64,000 nt of DNA from Nannocystales bacterium (GCA_050633305.1 JBOEGF010000018.1:544001-608000); one strand, 5' to 3'. Positions 2,763-44,648 are shown, numbered from the stretch's first letter. Program-made: numbers and translations. The notes: a model not told the origin generated them from the sequence alone.

Positions 2763-3821
2763 TTAGTCGGAAGACTTCAGTTCACCCGCCAGCGTCGACA
2801 GGTCGAACTGTCGCGTGACCATGGTGAGCTCGTTGACCTCGATGATGTCGAGCTCGCGGACCATGGTGTAGTCGGGCTCGTCGAAATCCCCCGGGACGAC
2901 CTCGACGAACTCGGAGAGGTCGAGGGCAGGGACGTCGGCATCGTGGTGTTGCGCCGCTGCGGGCCGCGGCGCGGGCTTGGGCGGCGGCGGCGGGGCGAAG
3001 GAGGTTTGCACCGCGAGGAGGCGGGCGTTGTTGGGGTTCCAGTTCAGCCCGCGTTCGACCAGACGCTTGGCCTCGTCCCGCGACGCCTCACTCTGGCTGA
3101 GCATGACCGCGAGGCGCGAGACCACCTCGGCGGCCTTGTCCTTGCGACCGAGCTCGGCGAAGGTTTCGGCCATGCGCTCGAGCGCGTCGGCGTCCCCGGG
3201 TCGCTGGTCGAGTAGGCTTTGAATCGTGACGGCCGCCCGGTGCAGGTCCTTTCGCTGCAGGTGCGCGCGCATCAGCATGCGCAGCGTGGGGATGTCGGCG
3301 GGGCGGTGCGTGAGGAGTTGGTCGGCGACGAAGATGAACCCTTCGTAGGCCTCGTTGCGGAACAGCTCAGTCGAAGCCTCTTCGAGTGCTCGGACCATCT
3401 CTGTGTGCTTGCCCAGGTTGACGTACCAGTCCATCACCTGTCGCCAGCGCGCGGGTGTGGGTTCCGCCATGGCGGCGAGGCGGTAGGCGTGTAAGCCGAC
3501 CTCGACCTTGCCTTGCTGCAACGCCACGTTGGCGGCCTGGTCGAGGGTGGTCGCGGCTTCGCGGGGCCGGTCGGCGCGATAGAGCATCTCGCCGACCTTG
3601 AGCTGCGTCTCGGAGTGCGGGCCTTCGAGACGCACGATCTCCGCATAGGCGCGCAGGGCGTTGCGAAAGTTTCCACGTTCCTCGGCCGCAGCGGCAGCTG
3701 TCCGGTACAAGCCGATCGCGGGCACCGTGTGTCCCTGACTGAGGAACGCCGCGGCCTGGGCCATGTGAACCTCGAAGTCGGACTGCTGCTGAGGCAGCGG
3801 TGGGGACGCGTATCGAGCCAT
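2763..3821 (-). CDS. Tetratricopeptide-repeat protein
   Basis: Helical repeats with TPR-like A/Y/L/P pattern; ATG at 3821 (the longer ORF overlaps the next gene). Confidence 0.75.
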   Translation of the reverse strand: MARYASPPLPQQQSDFEVHMAQAAAFLSQGHTVPAIGLYRTAAAAAEERGNFRNALRAYAEIVRLEGPHSETQLKVGEMLYRADRPREAATTLDQAANVALQQGKVEVGLHAYRLAAMAEPTPARWRQVMDWYVNLGKHTEMVRALEEASTELFRNEAYEGFIFVADQLLTHRPADIPTLRMLMRAHLQRKDLHRAAVTIQSLLDQRPGDADALERMAETFAELGRKDKAAEVVSRLAVMLSQSEASRDEAKRLVERGLNWNPNNARLLAVQTSFAPPPPPKPAPRPAAAQHHDADVPALDLSEFVEVVPGDFDEPDYTMVRELDIIEVNELTMVTRQFDLSTLAGELKSSD

Positions 3822-3986
3822 GCGAGGGTCTCGGGACCAAGGGCACCGGGGGCCGTTCGGCTCGCGGTCCGACCAGGGTATCAGGCCGGACCGCGCGACG
3901 GATCTAGGTTTTTGCGGCGCGGAATCGTCGCGGCAACGGCCCGACTTCGGCCTGAAAGACGGGTGATATCGGTCGATGCCGGGTCC

Positions 3987-5549
3987 ATGCATCGTGCGCT
4001 GTCGTCGCTGGCCTGGGTCTTCTTCGTACTGCCCGCCTGCGGGGGAACATCCGCTGCTGATGAGCCGCTGGGGGGCGGCCAAGGTGGAACAGGGGGTGTT
4101 GCAGATCCGTCGACTTCGGGGGAGGTCGACGGGAGCGAGGGATCGGAGGAATCCGGTCGCGGCGGCAGCGCGGGTGGTGCGACCGATGGCGATGACTCCT
4201 CGGGCGGATCGAGCAGCGGCGCCGCCGTGGAGGGGTTCTGCGGCGACGGGGTCTTGGACATCGGAGAGTTCTGTGATGACGGAAACGTCGACCCCGGTGA
4301 CGGCTGCGACCCTGACTGTACTCGCTCCGAAGGCGTCGCTTCGTTCTCCGTGGGGGCTTCTCACACATGCGCTGTGTCCTTCGAAGGCAGGGTCCGGTGC
4401 TTTGGTGACAACACGTACGGCCAACTCGGCACCGGAAGCACGAGGATGATCGGAGATGACGAAACCCCGCTCGATGCCGGGCTCGACGTGCAGCTTCCGC
4501 CCGTGACCCAGGTCGCCGCTGGAGACCGCCACACGTGCGCGGTCACCACGGAGCACGAGGTTTACTGTTGGGGGGCGAACGAGTCCGGCCAGCTCGGCCT
4601 CGGACACGACAAGACGTGGGGCGATGCTCCCGATGAGCCCCTGGAACCGGTCGGATTGGACGGCTTGGTCGGCGCCGTCACGGTTGGCGCTTCGCACACC
4701 TGTGCACGGATGTTCGGTGGAACCATTCGGTGCTGGGGCGACAGCTCGCACGGCCAACTCGGTCACGGGGATGCCTTCGCCGGGACGGTCGGAGCGGGGG
4801 AGGAGCCATACCCCGACGCCGTTGACAGTCCCGCGGTGGACTTCGGACCCGACAAGTCGGTTCGAGAACTCTCGGCTGGACGAGGAAACCACACCTGCGC
4901 GGTGGCGGCCTCCGGTGATGCTTTCTGCTGGGGCGCATCACAAGATGGACAGCTGGGGATCGGTTCTGGCAACCCTGCAGGACTCGATCGGACGCCGGCA
5001 CAGGCCGGGCCGGTGGGTGCTGGCTCGCCCGCCCGTCTCACCGTCGCGTCGACCCGGCACACGTGTTTGGTGACCACGGACTTCCAGCTCTCCTGCTTTG
5101 GTGACAACACATCCGGTCAGCTCGGCCTCGGGCACACGGACACGATCGGAGACGACGAAACGCCGGCCGCATCGCGGGTCGAACTGGGGGACGAACTCGT
5201 CCTCAACGCCGCGCTCAGCGACCATTCCACTTGCGCCCTCACATCCCACGGGACCGTCTTCTGCTGGGGTTCAGGCGCCTTTGGCCAACTGGGAGCCGGG
5301 TCGACGGAGGTCATCGGGGACGACGAGACGCCGGTCGAATCGGACGGGTTCAGCCCGGTCAAACTCTTCGGCGAGACGACCTCGATCTCCGCGGGTGCGG
5401 AGCACGTCTGCGCCCGAAGCGAGGACTCCCGCTTGCGCTGCTGGGGCCGCGGTGACGACGGACGTCTCGGACAAGGCGATGCCGAACTCGGGGCCTACGG
5501 TGACGATGCCGACGAGCGCGAGCCGCTGGTCGTGCGAATCTTCCGCTAG
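3987..5549 (+). CDS. RCC1-repeat beta-propeller lipoprotein with myxobacterial Cys-rich repeat
   Basis: Lipobox LPAC; CGDGVLDIGEFCDDGN..GDGC; about 7 repeats of HTCA...CWG.N..GQLG. Confidence 0.9.
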   Translation: MHRALSSLAWVFFVLPACGGTSAADEPLGGGQGGTGGVADPSTSGEVDGSEGSEESGRGGSAGGATDGDDSSGGSSSGAAVEGFCGDGVLDIGEFCDDGNVDPGDGCDPDCTRSEGVASFSVGASHTCAVSFEGRVRCFGDNTYGQLGTGSTRMIGDDETPLDAGLDVQLPPVTQVAAGDRHTCAVTTEHEVYCWGANESGQLGLGHDKTWGDAPDEPLEPVGLDGLVGAVTVGASHTCARMFGGTIRCWGDSSHGQLGHGDAFAGTVGAGEEPYPDAVDSPAVDFGPDKSVRELSAGRGNHTCAVAASGDAFCWGASQDGQLGIGSGNPAGLDRTPAQAGPVGAGSPARLTVASTRHTCLVTTDFQLSCFGDNTSGQLGLGHTDTIGDDETPAASRVELGDELVLNAALSDHSTCALTSHGTVFCWGSGAFGQLGAGSTEVIGDDETPVESDGFSPVKLFGETTSISAGAEHVCARSEDSRLRCWGRGDDGRLGQGDAELGAYGDDADEREPLVVRIFR

Positions 5550-33983: not shown

Positions 33984-35008
33984 GGGCTGTCCTCCGCGTG
34001 CCAGGGCTTGGCCTCGGTGGACTCCACGCCTTCGACGGCCTCGCCATCCCCGGCGACTCGGGCGTCGAGGCGACGGACCCGGTGCAGTAACTCTTCGGTG
34101 AGTCGGCGGTTGCTTGCGAGCAGGTCTCCGAGCAACGCCATCAGGCCCACCAGGAACGCGAGGATGAACGCGCCGACCCCGACCAGCAACGACTGGATGT
34201 GTCCGCTGTAGTCCGGGTTTTGTAGATAGAAGTACGTGAATCGGCCGCCCAAGGAGAGGCCGATGAGCAGCAGCACCAGCGCGACGAACCCAAAGGTCTG
34301 CACGGGCCAGTACATGTTGTAGGCCCGCAGGATGACCGCGCCGTTGCGTCGCAGGTATTCGGGGATCGAGCCGAAGAGCCGAGACTCCCGCGTCTTGGGG
34401 TTGGTCGTGATCGGGACGTTCGCGATCACGAGTCCGGCTTGTCCGGCCTGAATGATGGTCTCGAGCGTGTACGTGAATCGGTTGTGGACGAAGAAGTGGT
34501 ACGCCGCGTGTCGGTTGAACGCTCGAAATCCGCTGGTCGAGTCGGCGACTTCGGTCCCCGAAGCTCGCCGCACCACCTGAGAGCCCCAGCGCTGCAGGAC
34601 CTTCTTCAACAACGAAAAGTGCTCGATCGTATCGGTCTGCCGGTCGCCGATCACGACGTCGGCGCTGCCCTCGACCAGCGGCTCCACCAGGCGTGCGATG
34701 TCCGAGCCTTTGTATTGGTTGTCGGCGTCGGTGTTGACGATCACATCCGCCCCGAGCCGGATGCACGCGTCGATGCCAGCCATGTGTGCGGCCGCGAGAC
34801 CCTGGTTCCTCGGGAACGAAATGATGTGATGGACGCCAAGCTCGCGGGCGAGGGCGGCGGTCCCATCGGTGCTTCCGTCGTCAATGATCAAGACCTCGAT
34901 ACTCCCCACCCCGGGGATGGAGCGGGGAAGGTCGGCGAACGTGCCGCCCAAATGATCGCGCTCGTTGAGGCACGGGATCTGGATCAGCAGCTTCAGGGGA
35001 CGACTCAT
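33980..35008 (-). CDS. GT2 polyprenol-phosphate glycosyltransferase (DPM1/GtrB-like)
   Basis: IPCLNE, IDDGSTDGT, NTDADNQY, DSTSGFRA; two C-terminal TM helices. Confidence 0.92.
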   Translation of the reverse strand: MSRPLKLLIQIPCLNERDHLGGTFADLPRSIPGVGSIEVLIIDDGSTDGTAALARELGVHHIISFPRNQGLAAAHMAGIDACIRLGADVIVNTDADNQYKGSDIARLVEPLVEGSADVVIGDRQTDTIEHFSLLKKVLQRWGSQVVRRASGTEVADSTSGFRAFNRHAAYHFFVHNRFTYTLETIIQAGQAGLVIANVPITTNPKTRESRLFGSIPEYLRRNGAVILRAYNMYWPVQTFGFVALVLLLIGLSLGGRFTYFYLQNPDYSGHIQSLLVGVGAFILAFLVGLMALLGDLLASNRRLTEELLHRVRRLDARVAGDGEAVEGVESTEAKPWHAEDSP

Positions 35009-35114
35009 ACGGAGGCTGTTGGCCGGTTGTACCAAGGCTGCCGCCGGGGCGGTAGGATGCCGCATCGACGCTTCGAGCACCCCGCCGACCCCCAGTCGAG
35101 TCACGCCCCTGGCC

Positions 35115-36698
35115 ATGGTGCTGGTGCTGGCCATCCTCGCCGCCTTCGTGGTGCAGGCGCGCGCGTGGGCGTTTCTTTGCGATGACGCCTTCATCTCGTT
35201 CCGGTACGCGGAACATCTGGGCCAGTACGGGATGCCGGTGTTCAACGTGGTGGACCCGCCCGAGCGGGTCGAGGGCTACACGAACTTCTCCTGGGTGGTC
35301 CTGCTGGCGTTGGGCTCGGCGGTCGGGCTCGAGCCAACGTCGTGGGCTCCCGTCCTGACCGTTCTCTCGGCGGGCTTCATCTTGGTTCTGTCGGTCTTGC
35401 TGCTACGGGCGCTCCGGGAGGAATGGGGCGCACCTCTTCGGCCGCTTCACCTCGCGCCTGCAATGCTCTTGGTCGCGCTGCCCGAGGTGATGGTGTGGAG
35501 CGGGAGCGGCCTCGAGACGAGTTTCGCTGCGGCGGTTGTGTTGGGCTCGATGCTGGCGTGGTCGCGCGGACGAATGGTGACTGCGGGAGCGATGGCCGCC
35601 CTCGCTGGCCTGACGCGGCCCGATGCTCTGTTGCCTATCTCGATGTACGGGGTCGGATGGCTGGTCGCACAGATCGTCGCGCAGCGTCGCATCGCGGTTC
35701 GCGACGTACCTTGGAGGAAGATCGGGCTGGCAAGCGTCGTGTTCGCAGCACCGCTGCTCGCCCACCTGCTGTGGCGGCATGGGTACTACGGAGCGTGGGT
35801 GCCGAACACCTGGCCGATCAAGGCCCACGGGATGCTCCTGCGCGACACCTACGGGGTCGCCTACGTCGAAGCTTGGGTCACGCATGTGCACCTGTGGTGG
35901 TTTGCGCCCCTGGCCTTGGCACTTCGACCTCGCCATACGTGCGCGTTGCTCCCGGTCGCGGCCGTGGTGGGCTACGGATACGCGGTCGGTGGAGACTTCA
36001 TGGCGTACTCGCGTTTCTACATCGTCGCGACGGCTGCGCTCGCGGTGTTGGTGGGATGGCTGCTCGCCGATGTGGCGGATTGGGCGGCCTCCAAGTTGGG
36101 CGCGCGCGCTCGTTGGGGCGCCCTCGCAGCGGTCGTCGTGGTCTCCGGGTTGTTGGGTCGGGAAGCGCGGGCTCGGCACGCGCATGACGTCGCTCAAGGC
36201 GGAAAGTGGATCGACGGGAAGTGGGAAGGCACGGTCGCGATGGACCGCTTTGCCAAGGTCGGGTTGGCAGCCGGGCGATGGATGCACTCGAACCTCCCTG
36301 CCGACACCTGGATCGCGGTGGGCGCGGCCGGGGCCGTGCCGTACGGGGCCAAGTTGCCGACGATCGATGCGTACGGGTTGATCGACCCGGTCATCGCGAC
36401 GATGCCGGAAGCCGGCCCCTACACAGGAAAAGGGGCACGCCCCGGCCATCAGCTCCAAGCTCCACGCGACTACATCCTCAGTCGCGATCCTGACCTGCTC
36501 TGTCACGTCGGATACCGCGGGCCGAGGCCGCCCTCGGAGCGAAGGAAGCCGAGGGGGTACGGGCGCAACTACCGCTGGGCCTGCATCGACCTCCCCGAGA
36601 TCGAGGACCGCCACGGCGAACCGCTGCCCGCGGGTGTGTACTGCTGTCGTCGACCTGCCGAGCGCGCGGTCGGTCCGTTCGGCCAGGAGACGCGATGA
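35115..36698 (+). CDS. GT-C membrane glycosyltransferase, AftB-like
   Basis: DDAFISFRYA...ERVEGYTNF, SGLET, TRPD, PNT..K, ID.YGL.D, GH; start uncertain. Confidence 0.75.
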   Translation: MVLVLAILAAFVVQARAWAFLCDDAFISFRYAEHLGQYGMPVFNVVDPPERVEGYTNFSWVVLLALGSAVGLEPTSWAPVLTVLSAGFILVLSVLLLRALREEWGAPLRPLHLAPAMLLVALPEVMVWSGSGLETSFAAAVVLGSMLAWSRGRMVTAGAMAALAGLTRPDALLPISMYGVGWLVAQIVAQRRIAVRDVPWRKIGLASVVFAAPLLAHLLWRHGYYGAWVPNTWPIKAHGMLLRDTYGVAYVEAWVTHVHLWWFAPLALALRPRHTCALLPVAAVVGYGYAVGGDFMAYSRFYIVATAALAVLVGWLLADVADWAASKLGARARWGALAAVVVVSGLLGREARARHAHDVAQGGKWIDGKWEGTVAMDRFAKVGLAAGRWMHSNLPADTWIAVGAAGAVPYGAKLPTIDAYGLIDPVIATMPEAGPYTGKGARPGHQLQAPRDYILSRDPDLLCHVGYRGPRPPSERRKPRGYGRNYRWACIDLPEIEDRHGEPLPAGVYCCRRPAERAVGPFGQETR

Positions 36699-38698
36699 GC
36701 CGAATCCTCGTCGGTGTCTCCATCGTCGTCATCAGCGTGGTCTTGCTGGTGATGGTGCTGCGCATCGGGTTTCCGTTGGAACTCGAGTGGATGGAAGGCG
36801 GCGTCCTGCACCAGGCCCAACGTTTTGCGCACGGGGAGGCTCTATATCCGCCTCCGGGTCGCGACTTCGTTCCGTTTCTGTACACCCCGGGGTTCGCGGT
36901 CTTGCTCGGGTCGCTCGGCAAGGTGTTCGGGGTGAGTTACACGCTCGGTCGATTGATCAGCATCGTCTCCTGCGTGGCGATCGGTTGGGCGATCTGGCGA
37001 GCGGTCGAGCTTGCGGGCAAGCCCCGGGCGCACCGCATCGCGGCCGTCGCCCTGTTCGCCTCCGGCTATGTGTTCACGTTTCGCTGGCTCGACTTGGCGC
37101 GACCGGACACGCTCGCCATGGCCCTGTGTGTCTGGGCGCTCGTGGTGCTGCGCGATGCTCGGGGAAGTCACCGGAAGGCGATCTTCGCCGGAGTGCTGAT
37201 GGCGCTCTCGTTTTGGACCAAACAAACCGCGGCGACGTTTGTGATCGCCAGCGGTGTGGGGGCGCTGCTCGTGGCGCCCCGGCAACTCCCCGCCTACGCG
37301 CTGAGCATCGCGGTGATCGACGGAGGAGGCGTGCTTGTGGGCAACGCGCTCACCGAGGGTCGCTTGTGGCACTACATCTACGAGCTCCACCAGAGCCACG
37401 CGTTTAACGACGAGCGCTTCGAGAAGAAGACTTGGGGCATGTTTCTGCACGCAGGCCCGTTCGTGCTGCTCGCGGCCAGTGTGAGTCTCGGTGCCTGGCT
37501 CAACCGACTGAGGACCTCCAGCGAACGGTGGGTGGAGGCAGCCGAGCCGGCGTACTGGGGGCTGATGGCGTTCACCGGTCTGCTCGTGTCGGCGCTGGGA
37601 TACTCCACCCAGTGGGCCGAGCCCAACGCGTTCATTCCCGGGGTGCTGATGGGCTCGATCGCCGTCGGTGTTCTCCTCCCGACATCGGGTCGTTTGAGCT
37701 TGGTGGGGAAGGGGCTGGTGGGTCTTCAGTTGTGCTTCGCCCTGGCGGTGGAGCCGATGTATCAGCCGATCCAGAACAAGGGGTTCGCGGGCCTCGAGCG
37801 GAGCTATGCCTGGCAGTCATGGGCACGAACCGTCCCCTCCGATGAACGGCGGGCACGGGCGGACACCCTACGCAAAGAGCTCGAGGCCGGGCCCGGACCG
37901 GTGCTCGCACTTCAACGGCCGTGGTGGACCGTCTTGGCCGGCGGGGAAGGGCACGTGGGGAGCATGGGCATCACCGACGTGTTGCCCGAGGACCGGGCCG
38001 CCATAGAGAAAGCGTTGGTGGGGGAGCTGCGCGACGGGCAGTTCGCGCAGGTTTGGACCGAAGGCGATCCCCCACGGTGGATGATGCGGGGATTGAGTGG
38101 GTACAGCCTCGGCCGGAGGCTTCATGGTGCGCAACGGGTTCGCCCGATGTCGGGGTACATGTCCGATGCTGGCATGGTGACGCGGTACCGGGCGGACCAG
38201 CTGCAGTTCGTTCCCGCCGGGCCCCGTCCTTTGCCGGAGGGGACGGTGGTGGTTGCCGACTTCGAGTCGGGTCGGGCTGACGGATTCACGGCGCGAGGGC
38301 GCGCGTTTGGACGACGCGCCACCCGGAGCGTCAACTCGTCCTTCCCTGCAGTAGGTCCCACGGGCGGCCGCTACTACTACTCGAGCGCTGGGCTTCGGGG
38401 CGACTTGAAGGCGACGGGCTCGTCTCGTTCGGCCCCGTTTGTGTTGCCTCGCGATGGCAGCGTCGAACTGCTCCTCGGGGCTGTCGGCAAGCACGACCGG
38501 CTCGCGGTCGCGCTGGTCGGAGGAGAGGACCGGGTGCCGCTTGCGATTCCGCCAACGCACCTCTCGATGGCTCCGGTTCGATGGAACGTGCCGCCGGAGT
38601 GGGCCGACCGAGAGGTGGTGCTCGAGTTGCGCGACGACGCGAAAAACGCCGCGCTGTTCGTGGACGACGTTCGGCTGTTGCCGACGTCCCTCCCTTGA
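36695..38698 (+). CDS. GT-C (ArnT-like) membrane glycosyltransferase with C-terminal beta-sandwich domain
   Basis: ELEWMEG, LYTP, ARPD, TKQT; C-terminal ADFE...VDDV domain; ATGA overlap. Confidence 0.72.
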   Translation: MSRILVGVSIVVISVVLLVMVLRIGFPLELEWMEGGVLHQAQRFAHGEALYPPPGRDFVPFLYTPGFAVLLGSLGKVFGVSYTLGRLISIVSCVAIGWAIWRAVELAGKPRAHRIAAVALFASGYVFTFRWLDLARPDTLAMALCVWALVVLRDARGSHRKAIFAGVLMALSFWTKQTAATFVIASGVGALLVAPRQLPAYALSIAVIDGGGVLVGNALTEGRLWHYIYELHQSHAFNDERFEKKTWGMFLHAGPFVLLAASVSLGAWLNRLRTSSERWVEAAEPAYWGLMAFTGLLVSALGYSTQWAEPNAFIPGVLMGSIAVGVLLPTSGRLSLVGKGLVGLQLCFALAVEPMYQPIQNKGFAGLERSYAWQSWARTVPSDERRARADTLRKELEAGPGPVLALQRPWWTVLAGGEGHVGSMGITDVLPEDRAAIEKALVGELRDGQFAQVWTEGDPPRWMMRGLSGYSLGRRLHGAQRVRPMSGYMSDAGMVTRYRADQLQFVPAGPRPLPEGTVVVADFESGRADGFTARGRAFGRRATRSVNSSFPAVGPTGGRYYYSSAGLRGDLKATGSSRSAPFVLPRDGSVELLLGAVGKHDRLAVALVGGEDRVPLAIPPTHLSMAPVRWNVPPEWADREVVLELRDDAKNAALFVDDVRLLPTSLP

Positions 38699-38734
38699 GG
38701 GATTTCGAAGCGACCCACCACCAACGGACAACGT

Positions 38735-38766
38735 AAAACGCCACAGACCGAAGCCCGTGGCGTGTT
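38735..38766. terminator. Hairpin between convergent genes, possible bidirectional terminator
   Basis: AAAACGCCAC-N12-GTGGCGTGTT. Confidence 0.45.
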
Positions 38767-38844
38767 CGCGTTGGAGTCTGTTCGACGTTGTCGACCTTGC
38801 CGGGCCGAGATCAACAGACGCTGTATCCGCTGTCTTGACGGCCG

Positions 38845-39276
38845 CTAGTACCGCACGCGGACGATGTCGCGGGTCACGAAGACCCGCTTCTTGCCGCCGC
38901 ACGGGTAGGCGAGCTCCATCTCGAAGCTCGAGCCAGGCTCGCCGCGGATCGCCGACGCCCACTGCTCGACCGAGCGCAGACGCTCGCCCTCGATGCGGAG
39001 GAGTCGTGCGCCGGGGAGGATCTTGCCGTCTGCCGGGGAACCTTTGATGACGCGAGACACGACCACGTGCCCCCGCTCTCGCTCGATGACCACTCCGATT
39101 CCGCTGTACGTGTACGCGCGGTTGACCTGGTGCTGCATGCCGCACTGCGTCGCAGCCATGCGGTACATCACGGCGCCGGACGTGGCGACGGTCCCTGCCA
39201 GGAGAATCGAACCGAGGACAACACGCCGACCGAGGCGCCAGCGCTGAAGAGAGGAGCGAGTTTCGCGAGAGCTCAT
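38845..39276 (-). CDS. Membrane-anchored single PDZ domain protein
   Basis: YSGIGV, VIKGSPADG.ILPG, IRGEPGS (CtpA-like PDZ, no protease domain). Confidence 0.8.
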   Translation of the reverse strand: MSSRETRSSLQRWRLGRRVVLGSILLAGTVATSGAVMYRMAATQCGMQHQVNRAYTYSGIGVVIERERGHVVVSRVIKGSPADGKILPGARLLRIEGERLRSVEQWASAIRGEPGSSFEMELAYPCGGKKRVFVTRDIVRVRY

Positions 39277-39537
39277 GTGTGGGTTGTTCCGAACGCGTTG
39301 AGAGAACCAGCACGCCCAGGATCCCGGGCGACATCCTCATTCTTCCACATGGCGAGAGTTGTTGCCACCCCTCGATCGGTCCACAGCCGGACCAAAATGC
39401 TAAGCGTTTCCGGCGCCTTCGGAGATCCGCCGGGTCGCAGGCTGCGCCAGTCCCGCGGACAGCGCACGACCGGGTGGACCGCTCCAGAGTTTCTGCGTTA
39501 TTTCGGCGGGCCCTCTAACCGGGATAGCGTTCCAACC

Positions 39538-40491
39538 ATGACCCGAGCCTCTGCGGTCACGCCCCTCCTCCTCCTCGCTCTCTGCGTGAGCGGATGCGAC
39601 AAGAGTTCGACCCCTGCCGCGGCGGGTTCGGATGCCACCGTTGCGGAGGCTCCTGCGCCTTCCGAGCCTGCGCCCGAGCCCAAGGCCGAAGCTCCGACGC
39701 CCGCGGACGAGCCAACCCTCGCCAACGCCGCTGTGGATGCGTCCAGTTTGGCCAAGGCCGAGCCTGCACCCGAGGCCGAAGCCGCGCCGGAGCCCGCCGA
39801 GCCAGAAGAGCCAGCAGAGCTACCGACGTACAAGGTACTTATCCTCGGCGATAGCCTGATCGCGACGGGCTTCGGAGCACTGCTCGAGAAGAGCCTCGAC
39901 GCGCATCCGCAGGTCACCTGCTACCGCAAGGGCAAGTCGTCCTCGGGTCTGGCGCGACCGGACTTCTTCGACTGGATTGCCGAGGCCAAGCGCCAGGTTG
40001 ACCTCCGCAAGCCCGACCTCGTCGTCGTTCTGATGGGCGGCAACGACGGGCAGGACCTCACGCACCGGAACAAGAAGGCCGGGCGGCGCGTCACGTGGAA
40101 GCATGAGAACTGGGAAGCCGGGTACCGGGAACGGGTGGATAGCCTTCTCGCGCAGGTCTCCGCCCCCGACCGCGACATCGTGTGGCTCGGGATGCCGACG
40201 ATGGGCCTTCGTAGCCTGGAGAAGAAACTCGTCACGATCCGCGGTGTGCAGAAAGCTGCGGTCGAGGCCCACGAGTCGGCCTCGTACGTCGACACGGCAC
40301 CGTTCGTCTCCAATGACGATGGCGGCATGCTCACCCATGCAGTGGTGGGCCCCAGAAAAAAGAAGAAGGCCATCCGCGCAGACGACCGGATCCACTTCAC
40401 GATGGCCGGCAGCCAGTTCTTCGCCGACGCGGTGTACCCCGAGGTTCTCGCGGCGCTGGAGGTCGAGGATGTGGTCGCGGACGAGGACTGA
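39538..40491 (+). CDS. DUF459/SGNH-GDSL hydrolase family lipoprotein
   Basis: VSGC lipobox; GDSL, SSGLARPDFFDW, GGND, DRIH. Confidence 0.88.
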   Translation: MTRASAVTPLLLLALCVSGCDKSSTPAAAGSDATVAEAPAPSEPAPEPKAEAPTPADEPTLANAAVDASSLAKAEPAPEAEAAPEPAEPEEPAELPTYKVLILGDSLIATGFGALLEKSLDAHPQVTCYRKGKSSSGLARPDFFDWIAEAKRQVDLRKPDLVVVLMGGNDGQDLTHRNKKAGRRVTWKHENWEAGYRERVDSLLAQVSAPDRDIVWLGMPTMGLRSLEKKLVTIRGVQKAAVEAHESASYVDTAPFVSNDDGGMLTHAVVGPRKKKKAIRADDRIHFTMAGSQFFADAVYPEVLAALEVEDVVADED

Positions 40492-40554
40492 GGCCGCCGC
40501 GAACATTTCGACTCCGCGGTCGTCTGAACTGAAGATGACCCGAGGAGGCCAGCG

Positions 40555-41691
40555 GTGAACCCCCGCGCTCTGCTGCTCTGTGCCGCAGTGTGGGTGGCTG
40601 GATGTGCGACGCCTGGCGCATGGAGTCGTTCGGGACTCGGCTCGGCGCGTGCGGACGCAGGTGCGGCCGAGTTCGGTGCCGGGAAGGGCGAAGAGACCGA
40701 GCGTCCTTGGGTGAAGCACAAGGTCGTTCCACGGGAGCGTATCGAGGACATCGAGAACCGCTACGGCGTGTCCAAGAAGGAGCTCATCCGATGGAACAAG
40801 CGGCTGAAGCAGAAACAGTGGATCTACGCGGGCCAGGTCCTGCGCATCAAGGCGCGCCGTGTTCCTCCGCCCCGCGAGAAGATCACCTACGTCGTCAAGC
40901 GCGGCGACCGGTGGGTCGAGATCGCGAAGGCCCACAACATTCGGGAGAGCGACCTGCGCTCATGGAACCGCAAGGTTCCGCGCGCCTTCAAGGTCGGGCA
41001 GAAGCTGACCGTCTACACCAACCCGCTCGAGGTGGTGGCGCCGCCGTCCGATGACGAGGGAGAGCCGGCGGGCTCGGGTTCGAACCCTGACCGTCTCAGT
41101 GTGCGCTCCAATGCCTTGTCGATCGGCAAGCCCAACCGAGGTCGGATCCAGAACGGAATCCAGCTTCCACAGAGTGAGCACTACACCCTGCGGGATCCAG
41201 ACCGCTCGTATGGCTCCTCGCACGCGGTTACGATCATTCACGATTCGATCGCAGCGTTTCGAGCTGAGACCGGGTACCGCGGCGAGATCAAGATCGCGGA
41301 CATGAGCAAGAAGGGGGGCGGACGGCTTCGCCCGCACGGCTCGCATCAGGCGGGCCGCGACGTCGACATCCGATTGCCCCGTCGCGCAGGCGTGTCCACG
41401 GACAACAAGAGCATCTCCGCGATGGACTGGGACCTGTCCTGGGCGTTGGTGAAGGCGTTCATCGACACCGGCGAGATCGAGTACATCTTCTTGGAGACGG
41501 GCCGGCAGAAGGCGCTTCGGAAGGCCGCGCAACGAGCCGGTGCGTCGGCGTCGGAGCTGGCGCGCGCGATCCAATACCCGAGCAAGCGCGGCACCAACAA
41601 GGGCATTGTTCGGCATGCCAGCGGACACCGGATCCACATCCACATCCGGATCAAGTGCGCCAAGAGCAACAGCCGCTGCAAGTCCTACTGA
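40555..41691 (+). CDS. Lipoprotein with 2 LysM domains and MepA-type penicillin-insensitive murein endopeptidase domain
   Basis: VAGC; two LysM-like repeats; SIG.P..G.I..G, DMSKKGGG..PHGSHQAGRDVD, HIH. Confidence 0.88.
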   Translation: MNPRALLLCAAVWVAGCATPGAWSRSGLGSARADAGAAEFGAGKGEETERPWVKHKVVPRERIEDIENRYGVSKKELIRWNKRLKQKQWIYAGQVLRIKARRVPPPREKITYVVKRGDRWVEIAKAHNIRESDLRSWNRKVPRAFKVGQKLTVYTNPLEVVAPPSDDEGEPAGSGSNPDRLSVRSNALSIGKPNRGRIQNGIQLPQSEHYTLRDPDRSYGSSHAVTIIHDSIAAFRAETGYRGEIKIADMSKKGGGRLRPHGSHQAGRDVDIRLPRRAGVSTDNKSISAMDWDLSWALVKAFIDTGEIEYIFLETGRQKALRKAAQRAGASASELARAIQYPSKRGTNKGIVRHASGHRIHIHIRIKCAKSNSRCKSY

Positions 41692-41803
41692 GCGCGGCCC
41701 CAAGCTTTGATGACGGTCCCGCGGCCTGCTCGGAGTCCGAGCCGTTGTTCTCGGTGGCTGTGCTGGCCCGAGGTGTCCCAGTCTTTTTCTTGCTGCGCTA
41801 CAC

Positions 41804-41832
41804 TTGACGCTCGTGAGCTACGCTTGTAGCTT
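41804..41832 (+). promoter_or_regulatory. sigma70 promoter with overlapping BlaI/CopY-type operator
   Basis: TTGACG(41804-09)-N17-TAGCTT(41827-32); palindrome AGCTAC-GCTT-GTAGCT (41816-31) matches TACAnnTGTA with one mismatch. Confidence 0.75.
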
Positions 41833-41838
41833 TGATTC

Positions 41839-42192
41839 GTGACTGACGCTGAGTGGGACATTCTTGAGGTGCTGTGGCGCCTTGAACAGGCAACGAGCTC
41901 TCAGGTTGCGGAGGCGCTCGCGCAGACCCGCGGGTGGGCGCCATCCACCGTCCGAACGTTCCTGTCCCGGATGAAGGACAAGGGGATGCTCAAGGCGGAC
42001 CGCGTAGGAAAGAACTGGGTCTACCGGGCGGCGAGCGACCCGACGGAGACCCGTCGGTCGGCCTGGCAGAGCTTTGCCCAGACCGCGTTTGGCTCGGTCG
42101 GTGGGGCGCTTCGCTTCCTCGCCGAGGACGCCAAGCTCACCCGAACGCAGAGGACTCGGCTGCTCGAGATGTTGGAGGCCAAAGATGACTGA
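41839..42192 (+). CDS. BlaI/MecI/CopY family transcriptional repressor
   Basis: TDAEWDILEVLW...WAPSTVRTFLSRM..KG.L. Confidence 0.93.
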   Translation: MTDAEWDILEVLWRLEQATSSQVAEALAQTRGWAPSTVRTFLSRMKDKGMLKADRVGKNWVYRAASDPTETRRSAWQSFAQTAFGSVGGALRFLAEDAKLTRTQRTRLLEMLEAKDD

Positions 42193-43615
42193 TCCATGGT
42201 CCTGGTTGTGGTCTGCGACGCTGTTGACCGGCTTGGTGTACGCGGTGGTTCGTCTCTGCGAGGTGACGTTCGGCCGGCGAATCCCCGCGGTGGTGCGCAT
42301 GGCCGGATACGCGCTGGTGTTCTTTCGACTGTTGACGCCGGCCACTGCGACGCACAGCGCAGCGGTGCTGCCCAAGGAGGTGCTGGCGGTCTCCGTCACA
42401 ACCGCGGAGGCTGTTTCAACCGATTCTTCCGTTTCCCACGAGCTCAAGGCCACGTCGAACTCTGGCAGACCGCTGCCATGGACGCAGACCCTGTACGGGG
42501 CAGGTGTCCTGGTGGTCTTGGGGACCGCGGTGGTGGGCCGACGCCGCGAGCGTTCGTTGCTTCGTACATCGACGCGCGAGATGGGCACCGACGGGGCCCC
42601 GGTTTGGGTCCATCCCACCGCCGGCCCCTGCGTCGTCGGCACGTTTCGGCCCCGTATTGTGGTGCCGGTCGAATTCCGGGAGCTGCCTCACTCGGTACGC
42701 TTGTGCATTCTGGCTCACGAGCGGGCGCACGTTCGTGGCCGTGACCCCTGGATCATGGCGGCACTTCAAGTCGCCGTCGCGGTCTCGTGGCCAGTCGTTC
42801 CATGCTGGCTCGCGGCGGCTCGCATACGAGCGCTCCTCGAGGTGCGGGCGGATGCGACGGCGGTCCGAACACTCGACTCCAACGCCACGCTCTACGGACG
42901 GGCGCTGATTGGGATGGCGTCCGTTCGGCCGCTGGGGAGTCTCCCTGGCCTGTCGGGCTACCGTGCCCTCGCCGAGAGGATTGCGGCCGTGGCGGCAGGT
43001 CCGTCGTCCCCACGGGGGTCCGGCGGTCTGCTGTTGGGGCTCAGCGTTGCAGCCCTCGCATGCAGCGTGCAGGCGGAGTCCTACCCAGCCGTGGAGGCCT
43101 CCGCCGTATCACCGGCCGAACCGCTTCCGGTTTCAGCACGACCCAGCGGTCTGGTGCAGGTTCAGGGCAGCGATGTCTTGCGGGTGGCCCACCCCGAACT
43201 CGCTTGGGCCACCCCCGCCGTCGCTCGAGAACTCGCCGACCTTGCAGCACGCCTTCGATTGAGCAGCCCCGGGGCGATCCTCACGGTCGGCGACCTGAGT
43301 CGGCGTGGCGGAGGACGCTTCCCACCGCACAAGAGCCATCGCGATGGACGGGAGGTGGATCTCCCATGGCCGGTCGATGAGGACGGTCAACTCCTCGCCC
43401 CCCAGGCTTGGGAGCTTCTGCAGGCGTTGGCGGAGAGCGGGAGTGTCGAGGCCATCGTCATCGATGGCGAGTTGCACGAGGGGATTCGCGAGGCAGCAAT
43501 CGCCGACGGAGCGACGGCGGAGGCCCTCGCGGCGCTGTTGCCAGAGCCGTCGGAGGATCCGACGCACCGCTCTCGACACGTTCATGTGCGCTTCCGTGCG
43601 GGCGGAGCGTCCTGA
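42185..43615 (+). CDS. BlaR1/MecR1-type M56 metallopeptidase sensor fused to C-terminal MepA-like domain
   Basis: GP.VVG..RP.I.VP, HERAH, EVRAD, YG.AL; C-terminal GDLSRRGGGRFPPHKSHRDGREVD...HVH; 8-bp overlap with repressor. Confidence 0.85.
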   Translation: MTDPWSWLWSATLLTGLVYAVVRLCEVTFGRRIPAVVRMAGYALVFFRLLTPATATHSAAVLPKEVLAVSVTTAEAVSTDSSVSHELKATSNSGRPLPWTQTLYGAGVLVVLGTAVVGRRRERSLLRTSTREMGTDGAPVWVHPTAGPCVVGTFRPRIVVPVEFRELPHSVRLCILAHERAHVRGRDPWIMAALQVAVAVSWPVVPCWLAAARIRALLEVRADATAVRTLDSNATLYGRALIGMASVRPLGSLPGLSGYRALAERIAAVAAGPSSPRGSGGLLLGLSVAALACSVQAESYPAVEASAVSPAEPLPVSARPSGLVQVQGSDVLRVAHPELAWATPAVARELADLAARLRLSSPGAILTVGDLSRRGGGRFPPHKSHRDGREVDLPWPVDEDGQLLAPQAWELLQALAESGSVEAIVIDGELHEGIREAAIADGATAEALAALLPEPSEDPTHRSRHVHVRFRAGGAS

Positions 43616-43682
43616 GGACCGGAACAGTCGGTTCCGCCGCGGGGGCCTCGCAAGTCGGGCAATGCGTGGCAGCCTGGCGGCC

Positions 43683-44648
43683 ATGGGACACCTGTTCGAA
43701 GGCACCTGGCGGACCGAGGACCACTTTCCGACAGACAGTGAAGGCCGGTTCGTCCGGAAATCTGCGAGCTTTCGCAACCAGGTGAAAGCTGATGGATCGA
43801 CGCCCTATACGCCCGAGGCAGGTCGTTACCACCTCTACGTCTCGTACGCCTGTCCGTGGGCGCATCGTACGTTGATCGCGCGGGCGCTGCTCGGTCTCGA
43901 GGATGCGATCTCGGTCTCGGTCTGCCACCCGCTGATGCTCGAGGACGGTTGGGTGTTCTCCGAGGGCAAGGCCGAGGTCGCCGACACCGTCAATGGCATC
44001 GACTTCCTCCATCAGCTCTACTCGAAGGCCGACTCCAGCTACACCGGCCGCGCCACGGTGCCGGTGTTGTGGGACAAGAAGACCGGGACGCTGGTCAACA
44101 ACGAGTCGCGGGACATCCTTCGCATGCTCACGACAGAGTTTCGTGGGCTGTGGACTCGCGAGTTGGAGCTGGCACCGACGGGGTTGGTCGGGGAGATCGA
44201 CGAGGTGGCGGCGTCTTTCTACAACGAGATCAACAACGGGGTTTACCGCTCTGGCTTCGCTCGAACCCAAGAGGCCTACGAGAGCGCGGTGACCGAGCTG
44301 TTCGGGGCGCTGGATCACTGGGAAGAGCATCTGTCCACGCGACGGTTCCTCGTGGGCAATCGTTTCACCGAGGCCGACCTCTGCCTCTTCCCTACGCTGC
44401 TGCGGTTCGATCCTGTCTACGTCACCCATTTCAAGTGCAACATCCGGCGACTCGTCGACTACCCGAACCTGTGGGGCTACACGCGCGACATCTTCCAGGT
44501 GCCCGGCGTCGCTTCGACGTGCAGCTTCGAACACATCAAGGCCCACTACTATGGGTCACACGAATCGGTGAACCCGTTCGGAATCGTGCCGCTTGGACCG
44601 GAACTCGATCACACGGCGCCGCATGGCCGTGAGTCGCTCTCCGCGTAG
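43683..44648 (+). CDS. yqjG: Glutathionyl-hydroquinone reductase (GST Xi class)
   Basis: RYHLYVSYACPWAHR, TVPVLWD, NNES, NNGVY.SGFA, LRFDPVY. Confidence 0.93.
   Translation: MGHLFEGTWRTEDHFPTDSEGRFVRKSASFRNQVKADGSTPYTPEAGRYHLYVSYACPWAHRTLIARALLGLEDAISVSVCHPLMLEDGWVFSEGKAEVADTVNGIDFLHQLYSKADSSYTGRATVPVLWDKKTGTLVNNESRDILRMLTTEFRGLWTRELELAPTGLVGEIDEVAASFYNEINNGVYRSGFARTQEAYESAVTELFGALDHWEEHLSTRRFLVGNRFTEADLCLFPTLLRFDPVYVTHFKCNIRRLVDYPNLWGYTRDIFQVPGVASTCSFEHIKAHYYGSHESVNPFGIVPLGPELDHTAPHGRESLSA

Follow-up and report, generated by a model that had tools for sequence, protein, structure and literature searches.

A BlaI/M56 gene pair with a MepA-like C-terminal domain

The window analyzed here, a stretch of 64,000 nucleotides from a Nannocystales bacterium (GCA_050633305.1, JBOEGF010000018.1:544001-608000), contains a blaI-blaR gene pair whose second gene encodes a membrane metalloprotease of the M56 (BlaR) type with a MepA-like domain in its C-terminal part. 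The first gene, blaI (41839..42192, on the plus strand like all features with window coordinates below unless noted otherwise), encodes a BlaI/MecI/CopY-family winged-helix repressor; its match to PF03965 (E-value 3.4e-26, 92.3 bits against a cut-off of 22.6) places it among the BlaI/MecI-type repressors, and inspection of the sequence revealed no CopY-type cysteine motif. The second gene (42185..43615; protein P0001, 476 amino acids) starts with an ATG at 42185 within the last blaI codons, giving an overlap of 8 bases with the blaI stop. Its product matches PF05569 (E-value 7.8e-17, 61.8 bits against a cut-off of 31) and contains the zinc motif HERAH at residues 178-182 (42716..42730). The third zinc ligand of the M56 domain, Glu219 of the ExxAD motif (codon at 42839-42841), lies in the sequence EVRAD, 37 residues after the second His of HERAH. 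Both HERAH and the Glu ligand are invariant in all eight full-length fusion proteins that were found (see below). The NCBIfam model blaR1_generic gave 20.3 bits against a cut-off of 400 and covered the M56 part only, and no match to PF00905, the penicillin-binding transpeptidase domain, was observed in the M56 protein.

The topology of P0001 was predicted by our own calculation of hydropathy and charge bias. Hydropathy revealed helices at about residues 8-27, 35-51, 101-119, and 278-298 (the latter encoded at 43016..43078), as well as a re-entrant hydrophobic segment at residues 189-212. Six of the first 15 residues past helix 3 are Lys or Arg, which marks this loop as cytoplasmic, while none of the first 15 residues past helix 4 is Lys or Arg, and the tail is net acidic (16 Lys/Arg vs. 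26 Asp/Glu). By this calculation the protein would have the same four-helix layout as BlaR1, which extends to the re-entrant segment and to the distance of 37 residues between the second His of HERAH and the Glu ligand. The protease loop would lie inside, and the MepA-like domain, connected to helix 4 by about 25 residues rich in Pro, Ala, and Glu, should be exposed to the periplasm.

The ectodomain resembles the murein endopeptidase MepA

The predicted ectodomain comprises residues about 321-476 (43145..43612). Its match to Pfam PF03411 reached 22.8 bits in a single stretch (cut-off 25, E-value 7.7e-5), and the in-frame pieces sum to 28.2 bits. In a BLASTP comparison it matched the M74 (MepA-like) domain of the neighboring LysM-M74 protein at 6e-18 with 29% identity. 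We built a profile of 58 rows, consisting of the window domain, nine other fusions or fusion fragments, 11 metagenome M74 proteins, seven of which are short and carry a signal peptide of their own, and 37 M74 domains of the window genome and its relatives. When this profile was compared to the PDB, MepA of Escherichia coli (1tzp) was the sole match (E-value 8.4e-20); the alignment sets PHKSHRDGREVD opposite GHASHQTGLDVD and HVHVRF opposite HMHVRL.

An AlphaFold2 model of residues 310-476, computed from the 58-row alignment, had a mean predicted local distance difference test score (pLDDT) of 89.8 and a predicted template modeling score (pTM) of 0.84. With this model, the top match in Foldseek was again MepA (1tzp/1u10, E-value 6.7e-8, query TM score 0.69), followed by Hedgehog N-terminal domains (E-values 3e-4 to 1e-2) and LdcB/VanY (E-values 0.04-0.1), all of which are LAS folds. 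The LAS signature consists of H-x(3-6)-D plus H-x-H, the first His of the latter being catalytic (as described in PMC4087270), and is complete in the ectodomain with H385-x6-D392 and H465-V-H467 (H-x2-H-x6-D at 43328-43360, HVH at 43577-43585). The residues H382, H385, D392, H465, and H467 are invariant across the eight full-length fusions, and the window domain keeps each of the nine columns that are invariant in the 58 rows (S, G, H, H, G, D, W, H, and R). Profile and model together confirmed the assignment of the C-terminal ~155 residues to a MepA-like LAS zinc-peptidase domain with apparently intact zinc-site residues.

The fusion recurs in relatives but is rare

A word-indexed search identified eight full-length M56+M74 fusions (P0001-P0008) with identities of 44-100%, as well as P0009 (see below). 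An exhaustive profile search of 1.84 billion protein representatives yielded 35,582 matches at E-values up to 0.001. Among the best 150 of these matches, four spanned both domains (P0003, P0008, and P0016 as complete proteins, P0015 as a fragment), and the remaining ones matched just one of the two parts, M56 or M74. A query with the ectodomain only returned 11 proteins, namely seven with an M56 part (six close relatives and P0016), P0009, and three LysM-M74 proteins. A match to both parts was present in one of 72 genomes of the family and, in a stricter first look, in one of 400 sampled genomes of the class; in both cases this was the window genome itself. The genome of P0016 lies outside the 400 class genomes sampled. 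A pattern scan of the genome collection, with patterns taken from the M56 part, revealed general M56 relatives only and no close fusion. Four candidates for distant fusions (G070, G071, G074, and G045), whose matches began at profile positions 271-283, were rejected and read as LysM-M74 proteins.

The identity of the relatives to P0001 ranges from 36%, the longest tblastn segment to P0016, to 77% for the ectodomain of P0002. At one metagenome locus, L114, the fusion is 74% identical, and colinearity of the locus with the window extends over about 34 to 47 kb, the neighboring genes sharing 80-97% amino-acid identity; at a second metagenome locus, L115, the fusion is 69% identical. The BlaI repressor is 90-91% identical in L114 and L115. 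From the window, L114, and L115, we calculated the ratio of non-synonymous to synonymous substitutions (dN/dS), which was 0.10-0.14 for the M74 domain, 0.13-0.19 for the cytoplasmic M56 part, 0.21-0.34 for helices 1-3, and 0.16-0.20 for the whole gene; with three sequences and a dS near 1, which is near saturation, these are rough values. The M74 domain is the best conserved portion of the fusion protein, with 76-81% identity. Taken together, the gene is functional and the fusion real, not an artefact; it is under purifying selection, but rare.

Two further proteins were observed among the relatives. P0009, a metagenome protein of 306 amino acids, has BlaI in frame with helix 4 and the M74 domain, the entire M56 part being lost; the Cys of its helix-4 lipobox (see below) is replaced by Tyr, and the protein arose either by a natural deletion or as an artefact of assembly. 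P0016, with 520 amino acids, is the most distant fusion. It has kept the zinc ligands, but the first, catalytic His of H-x-H is replaced by Met (MVHVRF). Its M56 part is 48% identical to a paralogue in G020 vs. 36% to the window protein.

A sequence-only reading of the window had proposed a BlaI repressor overlapping an M56 gene with HERAH at 42716-42730, and a C-terminal domain that is MepA-like instead of penicillin-binding and keeps the LAS zinc-ligand pattern. Both proposals stand. The same reading had named three outcomes that would speak against it, namely a domain that does not model as MepA or a LAS fold, a domain predicted to be cytoplasmic, and absence of the fusion from relatives. 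Model, Foldseek, and profile all lead to MepA, the hydropathy and charge calculation places the domain outside the cytoplasm, and the fusion recurs in relatives under purifying selection. For the functional proposal of that reading, a receptor for muropeptides or cross-links, several supporting points are weakened by the gene context, the tree, and the operator scans described below.

A conserved palindrome precedes blaI

The LysM-M74 gene and blaI are separated by a spacer of 147 bases. The only strongly conserved stretch of this spacer in a comparison of the window, L114, and L115 comprises the 34 bases at 41797..41830 ahead of blaI, a putative BlaI operator/promoter region. It contains a perfect palindrome, GCTACGCTTGTAGC, at 41817-41830, consisting of the arms and spacer GCTAC-GCTT-GTAGC and ending 8 bases ahead of the blaI start, and, 5' of it, a related half-site, GCTACACTTGACGC, at 41797-41810. 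BlaI/MecI boxes are of the same type as the CopY operator TACANNTGTA. In L115 the operator reads TACAGTTGTA, an exact TACANNTGTA, which is given as the operator core consensus of the related CopY family (PMC7253601).

Within the 64-kb window the blaI palindrome is the sole exact copy. In the genome of 11 Mb the 14-base palindrome pattern has four exact matches vs. about 12 expected from base composition, and only the one at blaI has its spacer and sits just upstream of a blaI start. Allowing up to two mismatches, 24 sites were counted in the window vs. 15.3 expected. A scan of positions 38700-44000 for the sigma-70 consensus returned no site. Because the conserved TACA-type palindrome is found only upstream of blaI, the blaI-blaR unit is, as far as its sequence indicates, autoregulated via this putative operator; a wider regulon was not found in the pattern scans. 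Elsewhere in the genome, three tandem CTAC-N4-GTAG boxes were observed directly ahead of another BlaI paralogue (G000:C10:798937-798976), and related repeats lie directly ahead of the blaI paralogue on C2 (G000:C2:265834).

The pair is an insertion beside a LysM-M74 gene

The region from 38.8 to 44.7 kb begins with a gene for a small PDZ protein (38845-39276, minus strand). It is followed by a gene for a DUF459/SGNH-fold lipoprotein (39538..40491; PF04311 at 2.8e-54), which also gave a weak PatB-like NCBIfam match of 74 bits against a cut-off of 580, and by a gene for a lipoprotein that combines two LysM repeats with a full-length M74 domain (40555..41691; PF01476 at 1.6e-17, PF03411 at 2.9e-14, PDB MepA 1tzp at 3.7e-8). 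These two lipoproteins had been described in the sequence-only reading and were recovered as such by the profiles. On the 3' side, the M56 gene is adjoined by a gene for an Xi-class-like GST. Further upstream lie two genes for large membrane proteins (34965-38698), both kept in L114; the second of them (36695-38698) matches the glycosyltransferase family PMT_2 at 1.7e-7.

The LysM-M74 protein is 90% identical in L114, and the DUF459 gene adjoins the LysM-M74 gene in six of six genomes of the same genus. In these six genomes no match was found to query bases 2902-4808, a segment of 1.9 kb with blaI-blaR (41701..43607 in the window), while both flanks are conserved; the segment is present in the window genome, L114, and L115. 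The gap between the flanks measures 26 bp in G001, 74 bp in G002, and 174 bp in G006; in all three, LysM-M74 is joined directly to the GST gene. In G004 the flanks are 1237 bp apart with an unrelated open reading frame (ORF) of 190 amino acids between them, and in G003 and G005 they lie on separate contigs. At L115, four minus-strand genes (L115:560-3580) separate LysM-M74 from blaI; as read from their translations, they would encode a small Cys-rich lipoprotein, an anti-sigma-like protein, an extracytoplasmic function (ECF) sigma factor, and a possible outer-membrane protein. From this comparison of sequences, blaI-blaR is a two-gene indel in a variable spot beside an ancestral DUF459/LysM-M74 pair. 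A chance landing beside an M74 gene is unlikely (<1% by our own estimate, assuming about 9,000 genes and about 21 M74 genes).

A cassette at such a spot could be a decaying or functionless passenger. The indel is missing from all six same-genus genomes and rare overall, P0009 has lost the M56 domain in frame together with the lipobox Cys, and BlaR (74% identical to L114) diverges faster than its neighbors. However, all eight full-length proteins have intact reading frames and every motif, the dN/dS of the whole gene is low (see above), and the operator is conserved, so that we give this explanation very little credence.

The origin of the fused domain was addressed with a quick maximum-likelihood tree of the 58 domains, which has support from the SH-like approximate likelihood ratio test (SH-aLRT) only, a midpoint root, and self-chosen rows. 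In this tree all ten fused domains fall on one side of a branch with an SH-aLRT of 98, and because they form one group a single fusion origin is the simplest reading. Short free secreted M74 proteins adjoin the fused group, from which the fused domain appears to derive, while the neighboring LysM-M74 domain falls far from them, within a group of 21 rows. An origin of the fused domain by copying of this neighboring domain was rejected, as the two are 25-29% identical and fall in different clades of the tree.

Other M56 and M74 genes of the genome

All six M56 genes of the genome adjoin a BlaI-like gene. A second BlaI/M56 pair (L203, G000:C8:229708-231261) carries a C-terminal SLT lytic-transglycosylase domain (PF01464 at 1.5e-22) with a Glu-Ser catalytic motif, and a weak ExbD-like stretch (E-value 0.0088) was noted in a third M56 protein (C23). 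Because an SLT-bearing M56 protein occurs in the same genome and the architectures M56+M23 and M56+Amidase_3 are common (see below), folds of cell-wall enzymes appear to be a recurrent choice of BlaR ectodomain. In L111-L113, which belong to the same M56 clade as the window protein, the long C-terminal regions have no Pfam match and no M74 domain and were judged helical from their sequence.

In the whole genome, PF03411 was matched 22 times, in about 21 genes, and LysM repeats are present in many of these. When genomes were queried with the ectodomain, 23 of 23 from the family gave 5-21 matches each vs. 0-4 in 16 genomes from other families of the class. MepA-like enzymes have thus undergone a large expansion that is specific to the family.

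Helix 4 ends in a lipobox-like sequence

At its outer end, helix 4 of P0001 terminates in a lipobox-like L-A-C-S sequence (GLLLGLSVAALAC-S), of which C293 (codon at 43061-43063) and S294 are invariant in the fusions. Since the segment is internal (residues 278-298 of 476), it is not an N-terminal signal peptide; its orientation is that of a signal peptide. Helix 4 shows the lipoprotein pattern of a hydrophobic segment that has its N-terminus inside and its C-terminus outside and ends in [LVI][ASTVI][GAS]C. The clade set consisted of 138 proteins with HExxH and a helix-4-like segment, and the control set of 72 M56 ORFs, mostly from Clostridia. A canonical lipobox, L-[AV]-[AG]-C-[SAGT], was found at the outer end of helix 4 in 80 of the 138 clade proteins vs. 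5 of the 72 controls, and any Cys at this position in 98 of 138 vs. 25 of 72. Elsewhere in the clade proteins a looser motif occurred in 44 of 1492 windows. The helix 4 lipobox is kept regardless of the ectodomain that follows. A first control count (33 of 72) was dropped in favor of the position-aware count, as Oscillibacter-type proteins have a Cys where helix 4 begins on the cytoplasmic side.

In Staphylococcus aureus, the type I signal peptidase SpsB is described as cleaving BlaR1 behind the last helix (PMC9834060). Helix 4 might analogously act as an internal lipoprotein signal peptide in P0001 and a large Myxococcota-type M56 clade. The Cys would be lipidated by Lgt, and LspA would cut constitutively or under regulation, freeing a lipid-anchored MepA-like domain that reads or cuts peptidoglycan, and the cut by LspA would set or reset the switch. 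We consider this unlikely, though worth stating. If true, it would parallel, with a lipoprotein, how SpsB sheds the BlaR1 sensor in S. aureus, and one gene would give rise to a polytopic protease and a lipoprotein; a functional lipobox in helix 4 would alter views of how such switches are built and turned over. In a limited search, which is no proof of absence in print, the phrase "internal lipobox" was not found in the literature on BlaR-like proteins.

The MepA-like domain as input or output of the switch

With a repressor, a predicted protease, and a MepA-like ectodomain, the blaI-blaR system probably reports on or acts on the cell wall, and sensing of peptidoglycan by the ectodomain is plausible. 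We tentatively favor, at a little short of an even chance, a BlaR1-like relay in which the MepA-like domain is the wall-directed input of an autoregulated BlaI/BlaR switch. The ectodomain would recognize the peptide part of peptidoglycan, either the cross-links between D-Ala and meso-diaminopimelic acid or free stem peptides, derived from the cell's own sacculus or from wall fragments. Its occupancy or position would be relayed via helix 4 to the M56 domain, as in BlaR1, and the M56 domain would then cleave BlaI, leading to derepression of at least blaI-blaR. Since induction yields a protein with the endopeptidase domain, input and output may coincide; if they are the same domain, wall stress would result in more membrane-tethered endopeptidase.

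Several points weigh against such a relay. A fully intact catalytic site suits an enzyme more than a receptor, and a substrate that is cleaved and released would be a poor stable signal. In P0016, lacking the catalytic His, the domain would bind without catalysis, yet this protein also suggests that lineages differ. The lipobox of helix 4 may mean that the ectodomain is severed from the protease, which would break a BlaR1-like conformational relay, and the full-length AlphaFold2 model, computed from an 8-row alignment, had a pLDDT of 52, too poor for interdomain contacts. The link to the LysM-M74 gene is, from the sequence comparison, positional, resulting from an indel at a variable site, and the pattern scans lend the association of the two no support from shared regulation. 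No copy of the operator was found upstream of the DUF459 or LysM-M74 genes in the window, even with up to two mismatches, and none was found beside another plausible target in the exact-pattern scan of the genome or the scan of the window.

Some of these observations would fit better if the MepA-like domain were mainly the output, an active DD-endopeptidase at the inner membrane or a released lipoprotein whose amount is set by BlaI and the M56 protease, with the signal being read elsewhere (by extracellular loop 2, in the membrane, or as a cytoplasmic wall fragment on BlaI). The catalytic and zinc-binding residues are intact and invariant, and the M74 part is the most conserved one. As the sole operator is the cassette's own, the only predictable induced products are BlaI and the M56-M74 protein. 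The domain has its closest relatives among free secreted enzymes of 216-280 amino acids, the fold is used as an enzyme in the about 21 M74 genes of the genome, and in Bacillus licheniformis a cytoplasmic peptidoglycan fragment has been reported to trigger the BlaI pathway (PMC3305447). On the other hand, the C-terminal ectodomain is the input in every BlaR studied, other members of the M56 clade have quite different, apparently non-enzymatic and helical ectodomains in its place, as would suit an input module that can be exchanged, and P0016 lacks the catalytic His. While the intact catalytic site, the lack of another predicted target, and the enzyme-like relatives favor the domain as output, the exchangeable ectodomains of the M56 clade and the loss of the catalytic His in P0016 favor it as input. 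A domain that is mainly output seems to us doubtful but a serious possibility, and the domain may also fill both roles at once.

Even as an input, the LAS domain could sense something other than cross-linked peptidoglycan. Its ligand might be the free D-Ala-D-Ala end of lipid II or of pentapeptides that are not cross-linked, as in the case of LAS proteins of the VanX/VanY type; it might also be a peptide antibiotic, or zinc in the periplasm, sensed via the metal site. Proteins with a LAS fold bind D-amino-acid peptides of various kinds, and matches to LdcB/VanY-like folds, though weak (E-values 0.04-0.1), were among those obtained. The fused clade is also long-branched and set apart from the characterized MepA at about 20% identity, because of which the specificity of MepA is not transferable to the fused domain. 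Nevertheless, MepA is by far the best match in both sequence and structure, BlaI is without the CopY-type cysteine motif, and a domain scan of the window revealed no metal- or antibiotic-resistance genes beside the blaI-blaR cassette. We regard such a ligand as improbable.

Comparison with known systems

MepA is a penicillin-insensitive murein DD-/LD-endopeptidase. The E. coli enzyme (Peptidase_M74, 1tzp/1u10) has its LAS fold and two motifs, H-x2-H-x6-D and H-x-H, in common with the ectodomain, and both are periplasmic, the latter by prediction. They differ in that the identity is about 20% and the window domain is about 100 residues shorter and fused to a membrane protease; the N-terminal "GxPNxGxL" segment and the Cys-rich tail at the C-terminus, which the long forms have, are also missing from it. 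Closer to the fused domain are the short secreted M74-like metagenome proteins of its sister group in the tree (P0105, P0107, P0114, P0124, P0133, P0152, and P0154; 216-280 amino acids). They have the same compact domain, the "AWGTP" motif, and the HxHVRFR ending, but unlike the fusion they are free, with an ordinary N-terminal signal peptide and without M56. The Hedgehog N-terminal domain, whose group ranks second among the fold matches, is likewise a zinc domain with a LAS fold and serves signaling instead of, or in addition to, catalysis; it is eukaryotic and from an unrelated context, and the analogy is one at the level of the fold only.

Repressor/protease pairs of the BlaI/BlaR type turn on penicillin resistance. 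The window pair resembles BlaR1/BlaI and MecR1/MecI of S. aureus and B. licheniformis in its arrangement, with the repressor gene directly upstream of and overlapping the M56 gene, and in a TACA/TGTA-type palindrome, here a putative operator, at its own promoter. Also in common, as predicted for the window protein and described for BlaR1/MecR1 (PMC9834060), are four helices and a re-entrant helix, a cytoplasmic HExxH...E, and an outward C-terminal domain past helix 4. However, the ectodomain is a LAS zinc peptidase of ~155 residues and not a class-D-beta-lactamase-like penicillin-binding domain of ~250 residues, no beta-lactamase or penicillin-binding protein gene is linked to the pair, the host is a diderm member of the Myxococcota, and helix 4 ends in a lipobox instead of the type I signal-peptidase site of BlaR1. 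CenIR of Clostridioides difficile belongs, like the window pair, to the BlaIR family, has no penicillin-binding domain, and is linked to the physiology of the cell envelope, but the tail of CenR is described as short, largely disordered, and without an enzyme fold (PMC13492132).

According to the same survey (PMC13492132, J Bacteriol 2026), about 15,000 M56 proteins fall into 254 architectures, about 6% have a penicillin-binding domain, and 96% are encoded within five genes of a BlaI. M56+M23 and M56+Amidase_3 are listed there among the nine commonest InterPro M56 architectures, with at least 100 entries each; none of the hydrolase-bearing M56 architectures is known to have been characterized by experiment. 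A review of M23 mentions the M56+M23 combination with no function assigned (PMC9662197), and the main text of the CenIR survey contains no mention of M74 or PF03411 (PMC13492132). The sequence-only reading had known of no characterized example of the architecture, and this holds insofar as none is characterized; fusions of M56 to M23 and Amidase_3 were already catalogued (PMC13492132). M56+M74 is a rare new variant within this recognized but uncharacterized class of wall-enzyme M56 fusions. As most BlaR-like proteases have no penicillin sensor and their signals are described as not established (PMC13492132), the fold found here, for which peptidoglycan cross-links are the known substrate, offers a concrete ligand hypothesis for one branch. 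It raises the question of whether a hydrolase that is, by its sequence, apparently active serves as receptor, as output, or as both, and a result would bear on the whole class of proteins in which a cell-wall enzyme is mounted on a BlaR chassis.

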